Assembly (NCBI GenBank): GCA_051715345.1
Contig: JBPXJQ010000004.1
Coordinates: forward strand, 1-25,018
DNA from: Candidatus Blackallbacteria bacterium
GTDB taxonomy: Bacteria > Cyanobacteriota > Sericytochromatia > UBA7694
DNA length: 25,018 nucleotides
Direction: 5' to 3'
Every line of letters begins with the position of its first letter. The stretch's first letter is position 1. This document shows positions 1 through 13,243 of the stretch, one piece after another. Position numbers and translations under genes: made by a program. The notes beneath the pieces were generated by a model. The model was not told the origin of the DNA. It searched no databases and saw nothing but the letters and a program-made list of their open reading frames with translations.

Positions 1-168
1 TTGGCAATTTCAAAATCCACCTGAAGAATCTCATTTTTCCATGCACAGCAATCAACATCATGCCTTAAACGAATGGGCGAACCTGCGCAGCCGGGTTTTC
101 AGCATTCAAAATACCACCCACTACTTTTTGCAGCGTTTTTACACGCCCTCTCCGAAAAAAACGACACC

Positions 169-1524
169 ATGAAAACAAAGGCTTTTTCGCTTGTTGTTAT
201 TGTGCTTGCTCTCAGCGCCTGTAGCTCCAATTCTCTCAGTCCAGCGACTACTCCCACAGCCTCTCCCACGGTCGTGCTCTCTCCCAGCGCATCCCCAGCA
301 ACAGTTACACTCACCCGCCTCACCAAAGGCCCTGCCAACCTGCCCCTGCGCGACGACCTGCTGCTCTGGAGCAGCCAATTGCAAAAGCTCGTCCAACTCA
401 CGGGCCTGAGCCCGCCTGCTGCGGCCCGGCTTTACGCCTATGCCGGGATCGCCATGCACCTGGCGCTCAATCCCGAAACCCGTCTGCAAGACAAATTAAT
501 CGGCCTCAAAGCTTTGCCAGAAGCACCAGCGAAGATCGACCCACGCCTGTATTTACACGCGACGCTCAACACGCTTTTGCCCGAAGTCATTTTGGCCACC
601 TCCCGGCAGCGCCAGCTCTTGCAAGAGATCGACTTGGCCCAGCGCAAAGCCCTCGATTTTCAAACCGCCGAAGCCAAACAGGCTTTGGAATCAGGCCAAA
701 AACTGGGGCAGCATTTGGCCCAGTGGGCCCGCGAAGATGGCTATTTACGCACCCGCAGCTTGACGTATACCCCGCCGCCGCGCAGCCAGAATCCCGCCTT
801 TTGGGGCCCAACAGCCCCCAGCCAAAAGGCTTTGGAGCCCTATTGGGGCACATTGCGGCCTTTTGTATTGCCCGAAGCCAAAACCTGCCACACGCCGCCC
901 AAGGTCAGCTTTAGCACGGCTGCGGATTCACCCTTTTTAAAAGAGGCCCGCGAAGTGCTTGAAACCGGGCAAACGAGGACTCCCGAGCAGACGGCCATTG
1001 CACGCTGGTGGGCCGATAATCCGGGTGAATCGCCCACGCCGCCAGGGCATTGGTTGGCACTGGCAGCGCAATTGCTCAAAGAGCGCCAAATCGGGGCCTA
1101 TCAGGCGGCTCAGGTTTTGGCTGTTTTGGGGCTGGCGCTGTCCGATGCCTTTGTCTCTTGCTGGAGCAGCAAATTTGAGGTCAATTTACTCCGGCCCGTG
1201 ACGTATATTCAGCAATACCTCGACAGGCCCCAGTGGAAGCCTCTGCTCACCACGCCCCCTTTCCCCGAATACCCATCGGGGCATTCTGTTGGCTCGGGGG
1301 CCGCAGCTGAGGTTTTAGAAGCCTTGCTGGGCCCTGGCCCGTTTACAGACCAGACCCATGTCTTGCGCGGGCAAAAAGCACGCAGCTTCGCCAGTTTTCG
1401 CGCAGCGGCCGACGAAGCGGGCATTTCACGCTTGTATGGCGGCATTCACTACCGCGATGCCATCGATCAGGGCTTGGCACAGGGGCGCTGTGTGGGGCAG
1501 GCTGTGATGAATCGGCTGGAGTAA
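169..1524 (+). CDS. PAP2-superfamily (acid phosphatase / vanadium-dependent haloperoxidase-like) lipoprotein
   Basis: ORF 73..1524. An internal ATG at 169 gives MKTKAFSLVVIVLALSAC, a classic lipoprotein signal with an LSAC lipobox. PAP2 motifs are present: K-x6-RP (KFEVNLLRP), PSGHS, and SRLYGGIHYRD. I saw no obvious Shine-Dalgarno sequence. Confidence 0.8.
   Translation: MKTKAFSLVVIVLALSACSSNSLSPATTPTASPTVVLSPSASPATVTLTRLTKGPANLPLRDDLLLWSSQLQKLVQLTGLSPPAAARLYAYAGIAMHLALNPETRLQDKLIGLKALPEAPAKIDPRLYLHATLNTLLPEVILATSRQRQLLQEIDLAQRKALDFQTAEAKQALESGQKLGQHLAQWAREDGYLRTRSLTYTPPPRSQNPAFWGPTAPSQKALEPYWGTLRPFVLPEAKTCHTPPKVSFSTAADSPFLKEAREVLETGQTRTPEQTAIARWWADNPGESPTPPGHWLALAAQLLKERQIGAYQAAQVLAVLGLALSDAFVSCWSSKFEVNLLRPVTYIQQYLDRPQWKPLLTTPPFPEYPSGHSVGSGAAAEVLEALLGPGPFTDQTHVLRGQKARSFASFRAAADEAGISRLYGGIHYRDAIDQGLAQGRCVGQAVMNRLE
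1305..1524 (+). repeat. Direct repeat copy A: the 3' 220 bp of the PAP2 CDS, repeated at 3189..3408
   Basis: By eye, this 220-bp block aligns without gaps to 3189..3408 with about 21 mismatches, roughly 90 % identity. Confidence 0.85.
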
Positions 1525-1539
1525 AGTTGAATGCGACAA

Positions 1540-3093
1540 TCAAAGCGCATCCACCAGCACATCAAAACCAACAATATTACGGCTCTCCCGGCTAAATTCG
1601 ATCCCAATCAGGGTGATTTCAATTCCTGGCGCTCTGTATTTTTCGGCGTAGCCTTTGTCAATTAACTGTTGCAACGCTTGGCCCGTGGAACTGCCTTCTA
1701 TGACTTTGAATTCAAACAGGTAAACACGGTTGTCCAATTTGAGGCTGAGGTCAATCCGACCATGGTTCGTGATGTCCTCTGGCTGTGCATCGAGCCCCAG
1801 AGCGGCCAATTGACTATAAAACACGCTGGCATAATGCCCTTCAAATTCCGCTATGGGATTTCGCCGATACCATTCATAGGGAATACTGGCAAACAAAGCA
1901 AAAACGCTCTGTTGTAGGGCCTCCAGATCGTGTGCTTCTAGCGCTGCTTCTAAACGGTTTCGAGCAACAAAAGCAGGTTGGGCTTCTGGCCCATACAAGG
2001 GTAGAATTGAGTCATTTAAAGCCATTTCCACTTCGCGATTGGGATAGCCCAAAATATATGTCCAGGTTCCTGAACGGGATTGTTTAACTTCGTGAAAAGT
2101 CAAATACCCAGCTTGCCACAACACAGCCTCTGGAGCCATATGCTCCACATCAAAACTCGACAGAATCGCTTCATTGGCTTCCCGGCGCATCAAATCTGGC
2201 GTAAACCAATTTTTTCGGGCCAATAACTCAATCAGAAATGTGGGGGAACCTGTTTCAAACCAATGTGATTTAAAGACGCGTTTTTGAAAGAGTAGCAAGA
2301 GATCATATGGGTTGTAGACCGCTTCGCCGGTCCAATTATAGCCATTGTACCAATGCCGAATTTTTTCGCGATTGAGGGCTTTTATTTCAGTTGCAAAGAT
2401 TGTATCTACATCTCTGTCTGTATAGCCACAAATAGCAGAGTATTCTGCATCTACAGTAATATCGTTGAGGTTATTCAGGCCTGAGAATAAACTGAGTTTG
2501 GAGAATTTACTCACGCCCGTGATAAACACAAACTTGATATGAGCATCACTGTCTTTGAGCACCGAATAAAAGCTGCGCAAGGCCTCACGCATCTCACGTG
2601 CAATCTCGGAATGGGTGATATTGTCCAGAATAGGCTTGTCGTATTCGTCAATCAGGACAACCACACGTTGTGCGCTTTGGTGATGAATGTTCTGGATGAG
2701 TCGTTTGAAACGACTGGGAATATCTGGCAAATGTTCGGTGATGTTCCAGGCCGTTTCATACCCCTCCAATTGTTCGTGGATAGCGGCTTCGAGGGCGGAT
2801 AAGTGTTTGTGCACACCGGCTCCAAAACTGAGTCGAATGACAGGGTACTTCACGGACCAGTCCCAGTGATTTTCGGCGTACAGTCCTGCAAACAGAGCAC
2901 GGTTGACCTCAAACAACTCTTTGAGCGTATCCAGAAACAAACTCTTGCCAAAGCGCCGGGGTCGCGACAGAAAATAATGGCTGCCCTCTGCGATTAATTG
3001 CAGGGCCAGTGGGGTTTTGTCTACATAATAACAATTCTCTTCACGCAGTTTGGCGAAGGTTTGAATGCCGATTGGCAATTTTTTGCGCGTCAT
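1540..3093 (-). CDS. AAA-ATPase-like domain protein with a C-terminal PD-(D/E)XK nuclease-fold domain (PF09820 + PF08011-type architecture)
   Basis: 517-aa ORF. The N-terminus IGIQTFAKLREENCYYVDKT is typical of the predicted AAA-ATPase family. A P-loop (RPRRFGKS) and a Walker B motif (VVVLIDEYD) are present. The C-terminus carries GRIDLSL...LFEFK, a D...ExK nuclease motif. The gene is visibly lower in GC (about 37-45 % in sampled 60-mers) than its flanks (about 60-67 %). Confidence 0.75.
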   Translation of the reverse strand: MTRKKLPIGIQTFAKLREENCYYVDKTPLALQLIAEGSHYFLSRPRRFGKSLFLDTLKELFEVNRALFAGLYAENHWDWSVKYPVIRLSFGAGVHKHLSALEAAIHEQLEGYETAWNITEHLPDIPSRFKRLIQNIHHQSAQRVVVLIDEYDKPILDNITHSEIAREMREALRSFYSVLKDSDAHIKFVFITGVSKFSKLSLFSGLNNLNDITVDAEYSAICGYTDRDVDTIFATEIKALNREKIRHWYNGYNWTGEAVYNPYDLLLLFQKRVFKSHWFETGSPTFLIELLARKNWFTPDLMRREANEAILSSFDVEHMAPEAVLWQAGYLTFHEVKQSRSGTWTYILGYPNREVEMALNDSILPLYGPEAQPAFVARNRLEAALEAHDLEALQQSVFALFASIPYEWYRRNPIAEFEGHYASVFYSQLAALGLDAQPEDITNHGRIDLSLKLDNRVYLFEFKVIEGSSTGQALQQLIDKGYAEKYRAPGIEITLIGIEFSRESRNIVGFDVLVDAL

Positions 3094-3188
3094 GGTTTGT
3101 GGTCCTTTGGGGCCGTGGCAGTGGGTTCACAGGGATTGCCCTTATACCGATTATAACAGGGGGTTATCTGGCCAAGACAAAAAAGTGA

Positions 3189-3408
3189 AGCCGAGGTCTT
3201 AGAAGCCTTGCTGGGATCTGGGCAATTTACAGACCAGACCCATGTCTTGCGCGGGCAAAAAGCGCGCAGCTTCGCCAGTTTTCGCGCAGCGGCTGACGAG
3301 GCGGGCATTTCACGCTTATATGGCGGCATTCATTACCGCGATGCCATCGATCAGGGCTTGGCACAGGAGCGCTGTGTGGGGCAGGCTGTGTTCAACCGCT
3401 TAAACTGA
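3189..3408 (+). pseudogene. Orphan 3' fragment of a PAP2 homologue (direct repeat copy B). It encodes the last 66 codons, including the SR-x5-H-x2-D catalytic motif and a stop codon
   Basis: ORF 3208..3408 translates to ...FTDQTHVLRGQKARSFASFRAAADEAGISRLYGGIHYRDAIDQGLAQERCVGQAVFNRLN, against ...QGRCVGQAVMNRLE at 1524. It has no 5' part, no ATG and no RBS. Confidence 0.75.
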
Positions 3409-3428
3409 AACGCTGAAGTATTTAGATC

Positions 3429-3458
3429 TTTACAAGAAACCGGATTAAATGTTAAAAT
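3429..3458 (+). promoter_or_regulatory. Candidate sigma70-like promoter TTTACA-N18-TAAAAT for the rhodanese/P450 pair
   Basis: TTTACA at 3429-3434 and TAAAAT at 3453-3458, about 32 nt upstream of the ATG at 3490. The spacing is inferred by eye. Confidence 0.3.
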
Positions 3459-3466
3459 TATATTAA
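3452..3466 (+). promoter_or_regulatory. Shared 15-mer TTAAAATTATATTAA, copy 1, 23 nt upstream of the rhodanese lipoprotein start
   Basis: Exact 15/15 match to 12444..12458. Confidence 0.5.
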
Positions 3467-3489
3467 ATTCAAGTTAATCCGAGGTTCCC

Positions 3490-3960
3490 ATGTCCTTTTT
3501 AGCCAAAACCCTTTCTGCAGCATTGGCCACTCTGGCCCTGACGGCTTGTGCCTCTCAACCCATGCTGATGCCTTCAGCCAGCCGCATGCCTGCCGCCTTG
3601 CAGTCCATGCGTGCCCAAACCAATTTTAAGCCCCAGGCCGTGGTGACCATTTCTCCCCAAGAGGCCCATGATTGGGTCATGGATCCCCAATCCCAATGGC
3701 TGGTGCTGGATGTGCGTACCCCCGAAGAATTTGCCCAGGGTCGCCTCAAAAATGCCACCTTGATGAATTTTTATGATCCGGATTTTAAAACCAAACTCGA
3801 AGACATGAACCGCCACCAGCCCACGATTTTGTATTGTCGCAGTGGCAATCGCAGCGGCCAGGCCTTGGAAATCATGCGCGCACTGGGCTTTAAAAATGTC
3901 TACGAAGTGCGCGGCGGCATTCTCGCTTGGCAAGCCGCGGGCTTTCCCGTGGTTAAATAA
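3490..3960 (+). CDS. Single-domain rhodanese (sulfurtransferase) lipoprotein
   Basis: The signal and lipobox MSFLAKTLSAALATLALTAC are present. The rhodanese fold includes the active-site Cys loop CRSGNRS. An RBS GAGG lies upstream. Confidence 0.8.
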   Translation: MSFLAKTLSAALATLALTACASQPMLMPSASRMPAALQSMRAQTNFKPQAVVTISPQEAHDWVMDPQSQWLVLDVRTPEEFAQGRLKNATLMNFYDPDFKTKLEDMNRHQPTILYCRSGNRSGQALEIMRALGFKNVYEVRGGILAWQAAGFPVVK

Positions 3961-7066: not shown

Positions 7067-8095
7067 CTAGGCCAGTCCGCTTTGCTTGTATCGGCCCGAT
7101 TGGGCCACATAGTCAAAATTGGGCAACGTACTCGGCTCCCCAATCGCTTCACGCAAGAGTCCCAAGACCTGCCCTGAAAGCGGATTGGTTTTGCCCAGGG
7201 CGATGGGGATGTCTTCGCTGCCATAACCAGGCCCGACATTAAAACGGGTGATCAAAAATCCAGTGGCATCATGGCGCATGGCATGGCGCAGGCCAGAGTC
7301 AAAACGGCCCACCAGCGGCACTTCTTTGGCACCGGGGCCCGGAATGCCCCCGGTGGGATTCATGGCCATGGCCTCTTCGGCCGAGATCACCCCACCCGTC
7401 AGCGCTTCGACAATAGCCCCATATTGTTTGTGCTGGTTGCAGCCATAATAGCCCTTTTCAATGGCCAAGGGCAGATCGCGCACGGCCTCTGGGTGTTTAT
7501 ACGCGTTTTCTTTTAAAGTGTGGATTTCTTGGGGGGTCATTTTGGCAAAATCGCTCATCACCAAGACGGCGTCATCTGCCAGGCTGCGGTCAAATTCCGA
7601 TTCTGGCACGGCAATATTGCGTGCGGCCAAGGCTTTAAAATCCGTGAGAATTCCACTTTTTTCAATCGCTGAAGCATCGCGCAGAATGCTTGGGAAACGG
7701 CAGCCATGCACGTCTTCTGAGCGCATCAAAGTTTGAACCAGGGCCTGGTCACTTAAATGCGACAAAGACACACCGCCCGTGGGCCCTGTACCACTGATGA
7801 CTGCCAGAGCATGGGCCAAGCCTCTGGGAATGGGAATTGTTGAGGCGTTTTCAAGCATTTTTTCGGAAGAGGTATTTTCGATTTTGTGGTGAATTTCTGC
7901 ATTTGCAGGCAATGAGTCCTGTTCCGCAGCAGGCGTTGAAAAGGCCTTGGGATTCGCTTTTGCCACTGGGGTCTCACTGGCATGGGCCTGAGGGGCAGCG
8001 GTTTTTTCTGGGCCAGAAGGCGGTTTGATGGCAGGGGGAGCTGAGACGCTGAGGGCCTGAGGAACAGGAGAGGGGGTGCCAGAAACGAGACTCAT
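7067..8095 (-). CDS. Hypothetical protein with a Pro/Ala-rich N-terminal region (about 90 aa) and an unrecognised C-terminal domain
   Basis: 342-aa ORF with no signal peptide and no clear RBS. I recognise no conserved motifs. Confidence 0.55.
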   Translation of the reverse strand: MSLVSGTPSPVPQALSVSAPPAIKPPSGPEKTAAPQAHASETPVAKANPKAFSTPAAEQDSLPANAEIHHKIENTSSEKMLENASTIPIPRGLAHALAVISGTGPTGGVSLSHLSDQALVQTLMRSEDVHGCRFPSILRDASAIEKSGILTDFKALAARNIAVPESEFDRSLADDAVLVMSDFAKMTPQEIHTLKENAYKHPEAVRDLPLAIEKGYYGCNQHKQYGAIVEALTGGVISAEEAMAMNPTGGIPGPGAKEVPLVGRFDSGLRHAMRHDATGFLITRFNVGPGYGSEDIPIALGKTNPLSGQVLGLLREAIGEPSTLPNFDYVAQSGRYKQSGLA

Positions 8096-9265: not shown

Positions 9266-10747
9266 CTAATACCAGCCCATGGGCCCTTCGGTCAGGTTGA
9301 TATGCAGCTGTTTGGTTTCGAGGAAATTCTCGACGCCATATTTGCCCAATTCACGGCCCGTGCCACTCTGTTTATAACCACCCCAAGGTGCTTCACAATA
9401 GGTGGGCTGCATGTGGTTGACCCAGAAAATCCCCGCCCGCACCGCTTTGGAGACCCGCATCGCTTTGAAGATATCGCGGGTCCAGACAGCCCCCGCCAAG
9501 CCATAAGGGGTGTCATTGGCAATCGCAATGGCCTCTGCCTCGTCTTCAAAGGGGATCACGGCAGCCACCGGCCCAAAGATCTCCTCACGCGCAATGGTCA
9601 TCTGGTTATTGACCTGGGCAAAAATGGCAGGGCTGACAAAAAAGCCCTTGGCCAAATCGCCGCCGAGGCGTTCGCCACCAAAGACCAGTTGAGCGCCTTC
9701 GGCTTTGCCTTTGGCGATATACCCCAGCACGCGGTTGAGATGTTCTTCGCTGACCAAAGCGCCGAGTTTGTTTTCGGGGTTCATGCCCGGACCAACCTGG
9801 ATGGTTTTACATTTTTCGACCATGGCGGCGACAAATTTTTCGTAAATGGATTTTTGCACCAAAATCCGTGAGCCCGCTGAACAGACCTCTCCCTGATTGA
9901 CAAAACAGGCAAAGAGCGCGTTTTCGACTCCGGCTTCAAAGTCGCAATCTTCGAAGAAAATATTGGGCGATTTGCCGCCGAGTTCGAGGCTGACCTTTTT
10001 TAAATTGCTGTCTGCAGCTGCTTTCATGATCAGACGGCCCACTTCGGTCGAACCTGTAAAAGCCACTTTGTCGACCTCGTGATTTTCCGCCAATTCTGCG
10101 CCGACTTCTTCGCCCAGGCCGGTGACAATATTGACCACCCCTTTGGGCAATTCTTCAATGCCATCAAGGATTTTTGCCAATTCCAGCACACTCAATGGGG
10201 TGGTTTCGGCAGGTTTGAGCACCATGGTACAGCCTGCGGCCAGGGCCGGGGCCAATTTCCAGGCAGCCATCAGCAGGGGATAATTCCAGGGCACAATCAA
10301 GCCGCACACACCCACAGGCTCTTTGATCGACATGCTCACCGCATTGTCGGGCACAGGATTGACCTCGCCGTAGATCTTGGTGGCCCAACCACCAAAATAT
10401 TCAAAACAGGTAGCAGCATCCCCCAAATCGTATTCGGATTCAAACAGGGGTTTGCCCATGTTCAGGGTTTCGAGTTCGGCCAGTTCTGCGGCTTTTTCGC
10501 GCAGGGCAGCGGCAATTTTAAACAACACAGTGGCGCGTTGAATGCCTGTGGCCTGTCGCCATTCACCAGAGTCAAACGCTGCACGGGCGGCACTGATGGC
10601 GGACTGCATGTCTTGGCGGGTGGCTTGGGGAACTTGGGCCAGCACCTCTCCATTGGCGGGGTTGATAATATCCATCAACACAGAACCCGCCCCGGTGGTA
10701 AATTCACCCCCAATATACATCGGCACAGTTGTTAGCTCAGTATTCAT
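9266..10747 (-). CDS. NAD(P)+-dependent aldehyde dehydrogenase
   Basis: ALDH Glu active-site motif LELGGKSP, Cys active-site motif FVNQGEVCSAGSR, and FTGSTEVG. I prefer the start at MNTELTT, the ATG at 10745-10747, over the longer ORF starting at 10822. Confidence 0.9.
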   Translation of the reverse strand: MNTELTTVPMYIGGEFTTGAGSVLMDIINPANGEVLAQVPQATRQDMQSAISAARAAFDSGEWRQATGIQRATVLFKIAAALREKAAELAELETLNMGKPLFESEYDLGDAATCFEYFGGWATKIYGEVNPVPDNAVSMSIKEPVGVCGLIVPWNYPLLMAAWKLAPALAAGCTMVLKPAETTPLSVLELAKILDGIEELPKGVVNIVTGLGEEVGAELAENHEVDKVAFTGSTEVGRLIMKAAADSNLKKVSLELGGKSPNIFFEDCDFEAGVENALFACFVNQGEVCSAGSRILVQKSIYEKFVAAMVEKCKTIQVGPGMNPENKLGALVSEEHLNRVLGYIAKGKAEGAQLVFGGERLGGDLAKGFFVSPAIFAQVNNQMTIAREEIFGPVAAVIPFEDEAEAIAIANDTPYGLAGAVWTRDIFKAMRVSKAVRAGIFWVNHMQPTYCEAPWGGYKQSGTGRELGKYGVENFLETKQLHINLTEGPMGWY

Positions 10748-12297: not shown

Positions 12298-12443
12298 GGC
12301 TGTGACTCCTTAAGTGAATCTTGTTTGAATCAGATTGCAAATCAATACGCCAGTATACATTTTTGCCTGCCAGTTAAAAAGAGCCGTTGTGGGGATTAAA
12401 AAAAATTGTCTGAAAAGGCAAGTTTTCAAAAGTTAAGGATATA

Positions 12444-12458
12444 TTAAAATTATATTAA
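12444..12458 (+). promoter_or_regulatory. Shared 15-mer TTAAAATTATATTAA, copy 2, 29 nt upstream of the lipoprotein start at 12488
   Basis: Exact 15/15 match to 3452..3466. Confidence 0.5.
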
Positions 12459-12487
12459 TTTAAAATAATCCTCTGAGGTCATGTTCC

Positions 12488-13081
12488 ATGTTTCGCCGTC
12501 TTGCTCCCCTTTCATGTCTGCTCTTGACAGCCTGTGCCAGCCAATTGCCGCTGAATCTCGCTTCCCAGTCAAGTTTGCAGGCCCAATCTGCCGTTTCTGT
12601 GAAAAGTACGGCAGGCGCATTGGCTTTGATCGAAGAGATGGCTCATGCACAGCCCCCAGAATATGCGCGGATCGAAGCGGCCTTCCAAATTGAGATCAGC
12701 CGATCCACCCGTCCATCACTCAAAAAGATTTTGGCCCAAGCCGCAGAAAGCATGGTCCACCATCCAATTGCGGATCCCGATCCGCGCAAACATCCCGTCG
12801 CCAAATTGGTGCGTTTGGCATCCTGGCGCTACAATTGGCTGATGGGTGAAAACCTGATCTCGCGTGTATTTGAGCTTTTTGCCTTGGTCTATGCAACGCC
12901 AGAACAGCAGCCCGCTTTGACCCAGGCGTTTGAAATCCGGATTCGCAATACGCCCAAATTGGATGTCAATCTCTTGCTCACAGATTTTAAAGCAGGCTAT
13001 TACGACGATCTGCTGCCCGTCGGCAGTCCACTGCGGGTCAAACTCGAAACCCTCTTGAAAGACCGTTTGGCGGCCCGTTAA
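12488..13081 (+). CDS. Hypothetical lipoprotein
   Basis: MFRRLAPLSCLLLTACAS gives a signal with an LTAC lipobox. An RBS GAGG lies 9 nt upstream. An ATG at 12481 in another frame gives a short ORF with no signal and was not chosen. Confidence 0.65.
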   Translation: MFRRLAPLSCLLLTACASQLPLNLASQSSLQAQSAVSVKSTAGALALIEEMAHAQPPEYARIEAAFQIEISRSTRPSLKKILAQAAESMVHHPIADPDPRKHPVAKLVRLASWRYNWLMGENLISRVFELFALVYATPEQQPALTQAFEIRIRNTPKLDVNLLLTDFKAGYYDDLLPVGSPLRVKLETLLKDRLAAR

Positions 13082-13243
13082 TTCAGCCAAGGCTTTTGAA
13101 GCACTGCATAAAGGGCTGAAGCTGTCTATTCACACTCATTTCCCCATTTTTGACGGCTTGGATTTTTGTGTGATTTCTGCTTGCCCGAGGGGGTTCATGG
13201 TAGAATGATTCACCTGAAAATGGATTTTAAAAGAGGCTCAAAG

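Follow-up and report, generated by a model that had tools for sequence, protein, structure and literature searches.

Organization of the locus

We analysed a stretch of 25,018 nucleotides, called the window below, from the start of contig JBPXJQ010000004.1 (assembly GCA_051715345.1) of a Candidatus Blackallbacteria bacterium, a member of Candidatus Sericytochromatia. Near its left end stands an intact gene for a PAP2/vanadium-haloperoxidase-like enzyme, the last 220 nucleotides of which (copy A) recur 1.9 kb downstream as a headless second copy (copy B). Between the two copies lies a convergent gene for an ATPase-nuclease of the DUF1703 type, referred to as the cargo, and copy B is contiguous with the flank of a rhodanese gene (Table 1). 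Related loci are designated by the letter L and a number.

Table 1. Features of the PAP2 locus, numbered from the first letter of the window
Feature	Position	Strand	Description
PAP2 / vanadium-haloperoxidase-like gene	73..1524	+	Pfam PF01569, E=3e-10
Copy A	1305..1524	+	in-frame last 73 codons of the intact PAP2 gene, ending in GRCVGQAVMNRLE and stop
15-nt spacer	1525..1539		AGTTGAAT (1525-1532) common to L009 and L082; GCGACAA (1533-1539) common only to L082
DUF1703-type ATPase-nuclease gene (cargo), 517 aa	1540..3093	-	Pfam PF09820, E=1e-67; PF08011, E=7e-21
Cargo upstream region	3094..3188	-	TATAAT at 3150-3155, minus strand; ends at the junction 3188/3189
Junction	3188/3189		sequence AAAAAAGTGAAGCCGAGGTC
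Copy B	3189..3408	+	headless remnant, last 73 codons of a second PAP2 copy, ending in ERCVGQAVFNRLN and stop
Copy B 3′ untranslated region (9 nt) and adjoining GTATTTAGAT	3409..3427	+	AACGCTGAA plus GTATTTAGAT
Terminus of copy B plus flank			sequence GTGTTCAACCGCTTAAACTGAAACGCTGAAGTATTTAGATCTTTAC
Rhodanese promoter-like site (3429-3458) and rhodanese gene (3490-3960)	3428..3960	+	flank syntenic in L007-L010 starts here

Copies A and B align without gaps, are identical at 198 of 220 positions and form the sole repeat detected within the window (BLAST E 1e-84). An initial annotation made from the letters of this DNA had already described an ungapped repeat of about 90% identity with some 21 mismatches, joining the in-frame end of the PAP2 gene to a headless copy with its own stop; the description holds, with 22 mismatches counted. 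Copy A is the in-frame end of the open reading frame (ORF) at 73-1524. No coding sequence continues copy B upstream, where an in-frame stop lies 18 codons away; at its other end, the copy terminates with its own TGA. The onset of similarity is abrupt at 1305/3189, with at most 1 nt of common sequence before it.

The intact gene carries all three motifs of the enzyme, namely KFEVNLLRP (1171-1197), PSGH (1273-1284) and SRLYGGIHYRD (1426-1458). Copy B starts just after PSGH and retains only the last of them, the SR-x5-H-x2-D signature that the initial annotation had recognized there; devoid of the KxxxxxxRP and PSGH motifs, it cannot encode the enzyme. Judged by its motif content, copy B is a fragment and not a gene, and the ORF that it contains (3208-3408) should not be called a gene in annotations.

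Two PAP2 ends of separate ancestry

The 22 nucleotide differences between A and B are spread over 17 codons. Twelve of these codons differ synonymously (11 sense codons and the stop, TAA>TGA) and five do not (P>S, P>Q, G>E, M>F and E>N), in exact agreement with the earlier codon count, to which the stop codon is now added. In the central block of 48 codons (TDQTHV...GLAQ), all five changes are synonymous, as previously claimed. By the Nei-Gojobori method, 14 synonymous differences (Sd) over 51.7 synonymous sites (S) and 7 non-synonymous differences (Nd) over 164.3 non-synonymous sites (N) give a ratio of non-synonymous to synonymous divergence (dN/dS) of 0.13, a bias that departs strongly from neutrality (Fisher p=1.5e-5; binomial p=4e-5). 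Neutral decay of one copy after duplication predicts a dN/dS of about 0.55, which differs from the observed value with p=0.005. The proportion of synonymous differences (pS) between A and B is 0.27, and that between genomes in the gene body is 0.17-0.22. Mismatches are denser at the ends of the repeat, with 7 in the first 37 nt and 9 in the last 17 nt, and its middle contains uninterrupted matches of 38, 34 and 29 nt.

Six related PAP2 3′ ends (L082, L006, L001, L002, L003 and L009) were used to polarise the 22 differences. Four are private to A, three of them synonymous. Nine occur as polymorphisms in other genomes as well: eight belong to synonymous codon changes and the ninth, at 1341, falls in the same codon as the P>Q change. 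The remaining nine are private to B, where six nucleotides make four B-specific amino-acid changes and three are silent. At 1338 (G), 1341 (A), 1434 (A) and 1512 (C), the state of B is common only to L009; such L009-like states span the whole of B, with no visible crossover point. The closest of the six ends to copy A are those of L006 (10 differences) and L082 (13 differences).

Because dN/dS is as low as 0.13 and synonymous states are shared with L009, the two ends can be traced to two functional PAP2 copies, and their separate functional ancestries are thereby shown. The proposal of the initial annotation, two functional alleles or orthologues in place of a local duplication that then decayed, is borne out both by these shared states and by the two departures from neutral expectation (p=4e-5 and p=0.005). 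On this polarisation, the synonymous excess is standing divergence between functional lineages. The branch of B itself looks relaxed, its private changes (6 non-synonymous vs 3 synonymous) fitting a loss of constraint after truncation. Within the terminal tract of B (3391-3417), ATG>TTC, CGG>CGC, GAG>AAC and TAA>TGA are found while N-R-L is kept through synonymous changes, and the 9-nt untranslated region in this tract matches no sampled allele.

The survey of related PAP2 ends that had been suggested as a check yielded an A-type C-terminus in 10 of 10 close relatives, and no full-length PAP2 gene with a B-type C-terminus was found among them. A search with the 72-aa peptide of B returned only short, distant fragments, and its 66-aa ORF is absent from the protein collection. 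Two short proteins resembling the PAP2 C-terminus, at 5714-6222 of L080 and 6001-6342 of L081 (both long contigs), turned out to be frameshift-split genes in long-read assemblies and not displaced ends. It was also considered whether the B terminus might be a hybrid with the end of the 204-aa gene upstream of rhodanese in L007, L008 and L010, and no similarity to the 3′ end of that gene was detected.

Variable surroundings of the PAP2 gene

Homologues of the PAP2 protein, 96% identical to it, are annotated as vanadium-dependent haloperoxidases of Candidatus Sericytochromatia. They begin at MKTK, and the true start of the window gene is likely position 169 (MKTKAFS...). Homology of the relatives to the window ends at the stop codon or within 12 nt of it, and at least four different downstream contexts follow: among them a peptidase M10 gene in L001, a 190-aa gene with a Na/H antiporter in L002-L005 and an NHL protein in L006. 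The PAP2 stop codon is thus a synteny breakpoint and recombination hotspot.

On the 5′ side, the relatives display two alternative heads and upstream contexts, homology breaking near window position 256; the type of head does not predict the similarity of the PAP2 body. In one metagenome-assembled genome (MAG), MAG_89 (GCA_018780035.1), the PAP2 gene is present twice, in different surroundings (L001 and L002); the two genes differ at 20 of 219 positions in the repeated segment, to be compared with 22 of 219 between A and B.

The right flank and related loci

With the downstream p450 gene as query, four species-level relatives were recovered, at about 8-9% DNA divergence. In three of them (L007, L008 and L010), a conserved series of rfaE, O-antigen-ligase-like, 248-aa and 204-aa genes stands ahead of the rhodanese-p450 block, and similarity to the window sets in at 3428, immediately in front of the rhodanese promoter-like site. 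The fourth, L009, has PAP2 upstream of rhodanese as in the window and shares both outer junctions with it: AG(A)TTGAAT after the PAP2 stop, and GTATTTAGAT before CTTTACAAG. Common only to the window and L009, GTATTTAGAT marks the junction between the PAP2 and rhodanese sides in both. Between the same junctions, L009 harbours a different DUF1703 paralogue on the plus strand, with 68% amino-acid and 70% nucleotide identity to the cargo. A simple inversion of the cassette between window and L009 was rejected, the ATPase genes being only 68% identical and the inner flanks not corresponding. Copy B is absent from L009 as well as from L007, L008 and L010. Downstream of the L009 ATPase gene, the search for a decayed remnant of a PAP2 end gave nothing significant against shuffles.

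The cassette of L009 is bounded by an imperfect inverted repeat of 14-15 nt, GTAAAGATTGAATA / TATTTAGATCTTTAC (about 7666-7682 and 9429-9445). This repeat overlaps both the stop codon of PAP2 and the -35 box of the rhodanese gene, and a score at least as high is reached by 19 of 2000 shuffles. Its counterpart in the window is weaker, one A being missing.

The left part of the arrangement is found independently in L082, a contig of 2.9 kb with, in order, an A-type PAP2 end, the spacer AGATTGAAT GCGACAA, the 3′ end of a minus-strand ATPase gene and unrelated SMI1_KNR4/SUKH genes; its homology to the window extends over 832-1647 at 93.6% identity. The same junction of an A-type PAP2 gene with a minus-strand ATPase gene being present in both, this linkage must predate the split of the window and L082. 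The left junction is therefore common to L082 and the junction of B with the rhodanese flank to L009; the middle one, at 3188/3189, is abrupt and occurs only in the window. The site is variable in its cargo, another point on which the initial annotation had asked for a comparison, with a different paralogue in L009 and a truncated ATPase in L082. The ATPase end in L082 (713-835) constitutes a second headless 3′ remnant in the hotspot: it comprises roughly the last 36 codons of the minus-strand DUF1703 allele present in the window, and the SMI1_KNR4/SUKH genes that follow it are of the immunity-protein type.

Farther to the right, the surroundings of the ORF at 12488-13081 (197 aa, no Pfam match) vary by insertion and deletion among relatives over about 12300-13100: L009 has some 820 extra nt at window 13086-13094, and the alignment of L010 breaks between 12301 and 13088.

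The DUF1703 gene between the repeats

The cargo is the only coding ORF in the 1.66 kb between the repeats. Its protein combines an N-terminal PF09820 domain (AAA-ATPase_like, 228 bits vs a cutoff of 26) with a C-terminal PF08011 domain (PDDEXK_9, 74.5 bits vs 25.5). An AlphaFold2 model with a predicted local distance difference test score of 65 gave weak matches to STAND/ORC-type ATPase and PD-(D/E)XK folds, and sequence searches of PADLOC, NCBIfam and PDB returned no match. The cargo protein is a singleton at 90% identity, within a very large family of which Sericytochromatia MAGs have several copies per contig.

The closest relatives, at 75-76% identity, lie between nadC and a pair formed by a 276-aa gene and an alpha-amylase gene, in conserved synteny in three assemblies and without flanking repeats. 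None of the five comparable DUF1703 loci examined first (L009, L079 and L083-L085) has flanking repeats. Outside the ORF, paralogues are alike only in a short promoter-like TATAAT region, and they have no terminal repeats. The unit is compact, with 7 nt after the stop codon and 95 nt before the start codon, and its upstream region resembles those of the L009 and L079 paralogues only in a short T-run and GTTATAATC. The TATAAT box lies 8-10 nt before the ATG in L009 (about 7720) and L079 (about 4985), which look leaderless, and about 57 nt before it in the window.

More distant DUF1703 genes are present on the Calditerrivibrio plasmid pCALNI01 (L087, NC_014749.1; 10990-12777 and 37286-40707), which has five paralogues. 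Three of the five have similar, apparently intergenic sequences of 60-140 nt on both sides, two of these three being a tandem pair; for none of these flanking repeats was derivation from an adjacent gene demonstrated.

The GC content is 46.6% over 1525-3188 and 46.5% in the cargo ORF (48% at third codon positions), compared with 52.9% in the rest of the window and 58.6% in the PAP2 gene. The contrast that the initial annotation had reported is real, although 40-45% against 60% or more was an overstatement. Paralogues in L009 and L079 also have 48-49% GC; low GC is thus a trait of the family and the dip is no evidence of recent foreign origin.

DUF1703 proteins with the AAA-ATPase_like and PDDEXK_9 domains have been described as an expanded, horizontally spread and recombining family of unknown function, with 25 paralogues in the Cardinium strain cCpun (PMC6387759). 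The Cardinium expansions resemble the cargo family in their architecture, their multiple copies and the divergence of their paralogues. They differ in belonging to another phylum than Candidatus Sericytochromatia and in that no displaced host-gene ends are reported there.

Origin of the arrangement

Whatever the model, one illegitimate join must have linked the upstream region of the ATPase gene to PAP2 codon 411, and two PAP2 copies of separate ancestry must have taken part. The reading that we favour, with middling confidence, is that the locus is the scar of a recombination event by C-terminal displacement and not a dedicated mobile element. The resident PAP2 gene (allele B) would have stood directly upstream of the rhodanese-p450 block, with affinities to the PAP2 gene that occupies this position in L009. 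A diverged PAP2 gene (allele A) would have arrived already linked, at its stop codon, to the convergent DUF1703 gene, as in L082. Homology within PAP2 or upstream of it would have allowed the incoming DNA to replace the resident gene from the left, and the right end of this DNA, 95 nt upstream of the ATPase start, would have been joined illegitimately to resident codon 411 (3188/3189). The last 72 codons of the resident gene and its stop would then have been stranded beside their native flank as a headless, non-functional and now decaying remnant. We infer both this direction of the event and a mechanism akin to homology-facilitated illegitimate recombination. The incoming copy may have been acquired by horizontal transfer or may be a paralogue from the same genome.

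Several observations argue for displacement. The PAP2 gene is continuous with its relatives up to the stop codon, the transition at 3188/3189 is abrupt, and the donor-type arrangement (A-type PAP2 end, spacer and 3′ end of a minus-strand ATPase gene) exists independently in L082. Copy B, in this reading the displaced remnant of the resident gene, is contiguous with the right flank, its untranslated region running into the GTATTTAGAT shared with L009. The low dN/dS, the L009-specific states of B and its relaxed private changes point the same way, as do the several contexts that follow PAP2 in relatives and the differing genes found upstream of rhodanese in L007-L010. No recombinase was identified by Pfam in the ORFs between the repeats or in the neighbouring genes scanned, in keeping with the initial annotation, and no tRNA or Rfam element was detected. 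Recombination from a diverged donor, which that annotation had offered as an alternative, comes closest to the data, provided that the illegitimate junction at 3188/3189 is added to it.

Other observations weigh against displacement. Counted over all positions, B is no closer to L009 (20/219) than to L082 or L006, and six of the nine B-private changes fall within the last 17 nt, a clustering that simple decay does not predict. Divergence in sliding windows of 90 nt revealed no left crossover in the window PAP2 gene relative to its relatives. As the 5′ head and upstream sequence of the window match L001 and not L009, a long tract may have been replaced, or an intragenomic rearrangement may have taken place. 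Among 11 related loci, no empty site with a full-length B-type PAP2 gene directly before rhodanese was seen, and no donor with a full-length minus-strand ATPase gene downstream of PAP2 was found, the copy in L082 being truncated.

An intragenomic origin is the most serious rival, possible yet rather unlikely in our estimation. Two functional PAP2 paralogues would have coexisted, one with an L001-type head and linked to the minus-strand ATPase gene, the other upstream of rhodanese; a deletion or ectopic rearrangement from 95 nt upstream of the ATPase start to the inside of B would have removed the first 410 codons of B, with no need for horizontal transfer. The two genes of MAG_89 lend themselves to this scenario, as they differ about as much as A and B do, and so do the two alternative 5′ heads among relatives and the pS of 0.27 between A and B, in the range of the 0.17-0.22 measured between genomes. 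The MAG_89 copies could nonetheless reflect a strain mixture in one bin, and no relative has two PAP2 genes on one contig. The scenario also requires neighbouring paralogues or a larger rearrangement, and orthology groups of paralogues are not evident, since the type of head is not predictive of body similarity.

We find it distinctly improbable that the 1.9-kb unit made of the replacement PAP2 end and the DUF1703 gene is a dedicated mobile element, either a site-specific integrative element or a selfish gene of the homing type. In the homing version, cleavage of the PAP2 3′ end by the PD-(D/E)XK nuclease would be followed by copying of the unit into the site, along with a replacement end that resists cutting. 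The best argument for mobility is that two DUF1703 paralogues occupy the same site (AG(A)TTGAAT to GTATTTAGAT) in opposite orientations in two species. The cargo moreover shares more identity with a paralogue located elsewhere (75%) than with the one that occupies the site in L009 (68%), its family is multi-copy, horizontally spreading and recombining (PMC6387759), and it possesses the PD-(D/E)XK domain in a compact unit. Against mobility stand the lack of an integrase among the genes scanned, the lack of terminal repeats or a target-site duplication, and the fact that the paralogues have no sequence conserved beyond the ORF. Neither a duplicate nor a remnant of the PAP2 end is present in L009, no empty site is seen among the related loci, and PADLOC, PDB and the literature provided no evidence for mobility. 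The island integrating into a gene 3′ end that the initial annotation had envisaged finds no recombinase, tRNA, Rfam feature or empty site at this locus, nor any defined att-like core with divergent arms. Its other suggestion, that the ATPase-nuclease is itself the mobilising function, fares no better: the nearest paralogues sit in the conserved nadC/amylase locus of three assemblies, without flanking repeats, and none of the five comparable loci has such repeats. A more general proposal, in which DUF1703 genes are selfish homing-like cassettes that target the 3′ end or stop region of host genes in either orientation and are able to bring a replacement end, is one that we very much doubt; were it true, the PAP2 site would record two independent invasions, one in the window and L082 and one in L009.

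A local duplication of the PAP2 3′ end, tandem or segmental (for instance a long target duplication made at insertion), with the untranslated copy decaying afterwards, would fit the direct-repeat geometry and the mostly non-synonymous B-private changes (6 vs 3), but it is hardly credible given a pairwise ratio far below that of one-copy neutral decay (p=0.005) and B states shared only with L009 where A states are shared with others, which would need later gene conversion from outside. Equally hard to credit is a metagenome assembly chimera of two strains or species: the MAG comes from a clade with several environmental species about 8-9% apart, and A and B have identical runs of up to 38 nt, but no sequence is common across 3188/3189, so that k-mer overlap cannot create the junction, and both outer junctions are independently seen in other assemblies.

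Comparison with known systems

C-terminal displacement leaving orphan 3′ modules is known at loci for Rhs proteins, contact-dependent inhibition (CDI) and type VI secretion system (T6SS) effectors, where it has been ascribed to homology-facilitated illegitimate recombination (Kirchberger 2017, PMC5361080; Poole 2011, PMC3150448). As at the Rhs, CdiA and T6SS loci, the homology anchor in the window would lie in a conserved gene, a new 3′ end would have been brought in with a downstream gene, and the old 3′ end would have been displaced downstream as a headless segment repeating the conserved part, at a strain-variable locus without recombinase. Where those loci have a polymorphic toxin gene as host, the window has one for a PAP2/haloperoxidase-like enzyme. 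Its two ends, new and old, code for what is essentially one protein tail, with no change of function; the inserted gene is a convergent DUF1703 ATPase-nuclease and not an immunity gene, and a single displaced end is present in place of an array. Displacement at Rhs, CdiA and T6SS effector loci is reportedly also the subject of Jackson 2009.

The e14 element and phage 21 integrate into the 3′ end of icd and supply a replacement end. Elements of this type extend over many kilobases, carry an integrase gene beside the att site and have an exact core in common at their two ends. The window resembles them in its intact gene with an alternative, mostly synonymous 3′ end and in the position of the other copy beyond the insert, and differs from them in an insert of one gene with no recombinase and no defined core.

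Free-standing homing endonuclease genes can likewise insert together with a duplicated C-terminus of the host gene, as the mobile ORF in Allomyces atp6 does. There too, a nuclease gene lies beside a replacement 3′ end, the resident end persists as a downstream pseudogene and the two ends belong to different lineages. The cargo of the window is in contrast a 517-aa ATPase-nuclease on the opposite strand, from a large family of chromosomal paralogues.

Conclusions and perspectives

The PAP2 locus is a new example, in an uncultivated lineage, of a known kind of recombination scar. The comparison of a gene end with a nearby headless copy at the level of codons can separate recombination between diverged functional copies from local duplication, and this test has here been applied in the uncultivated Candidatus Sericytochromatia, the non-photosynthetic relatives of cyanobacteria.

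With regard to genome plasticity, the locus documents a recombination hotspot placed exactly at the stop codon of a conserved gene. Homologous recombination between the 220-bp repeats, which match perfectly over runs of up to 38 nt, could in time remove the cargo. The presence of DUF1703 genes at this rearrangement junction in two species could mean that they are cargo, that they act as dispersed repeats promoting rearrangement, or that their part in the process is a more active one.

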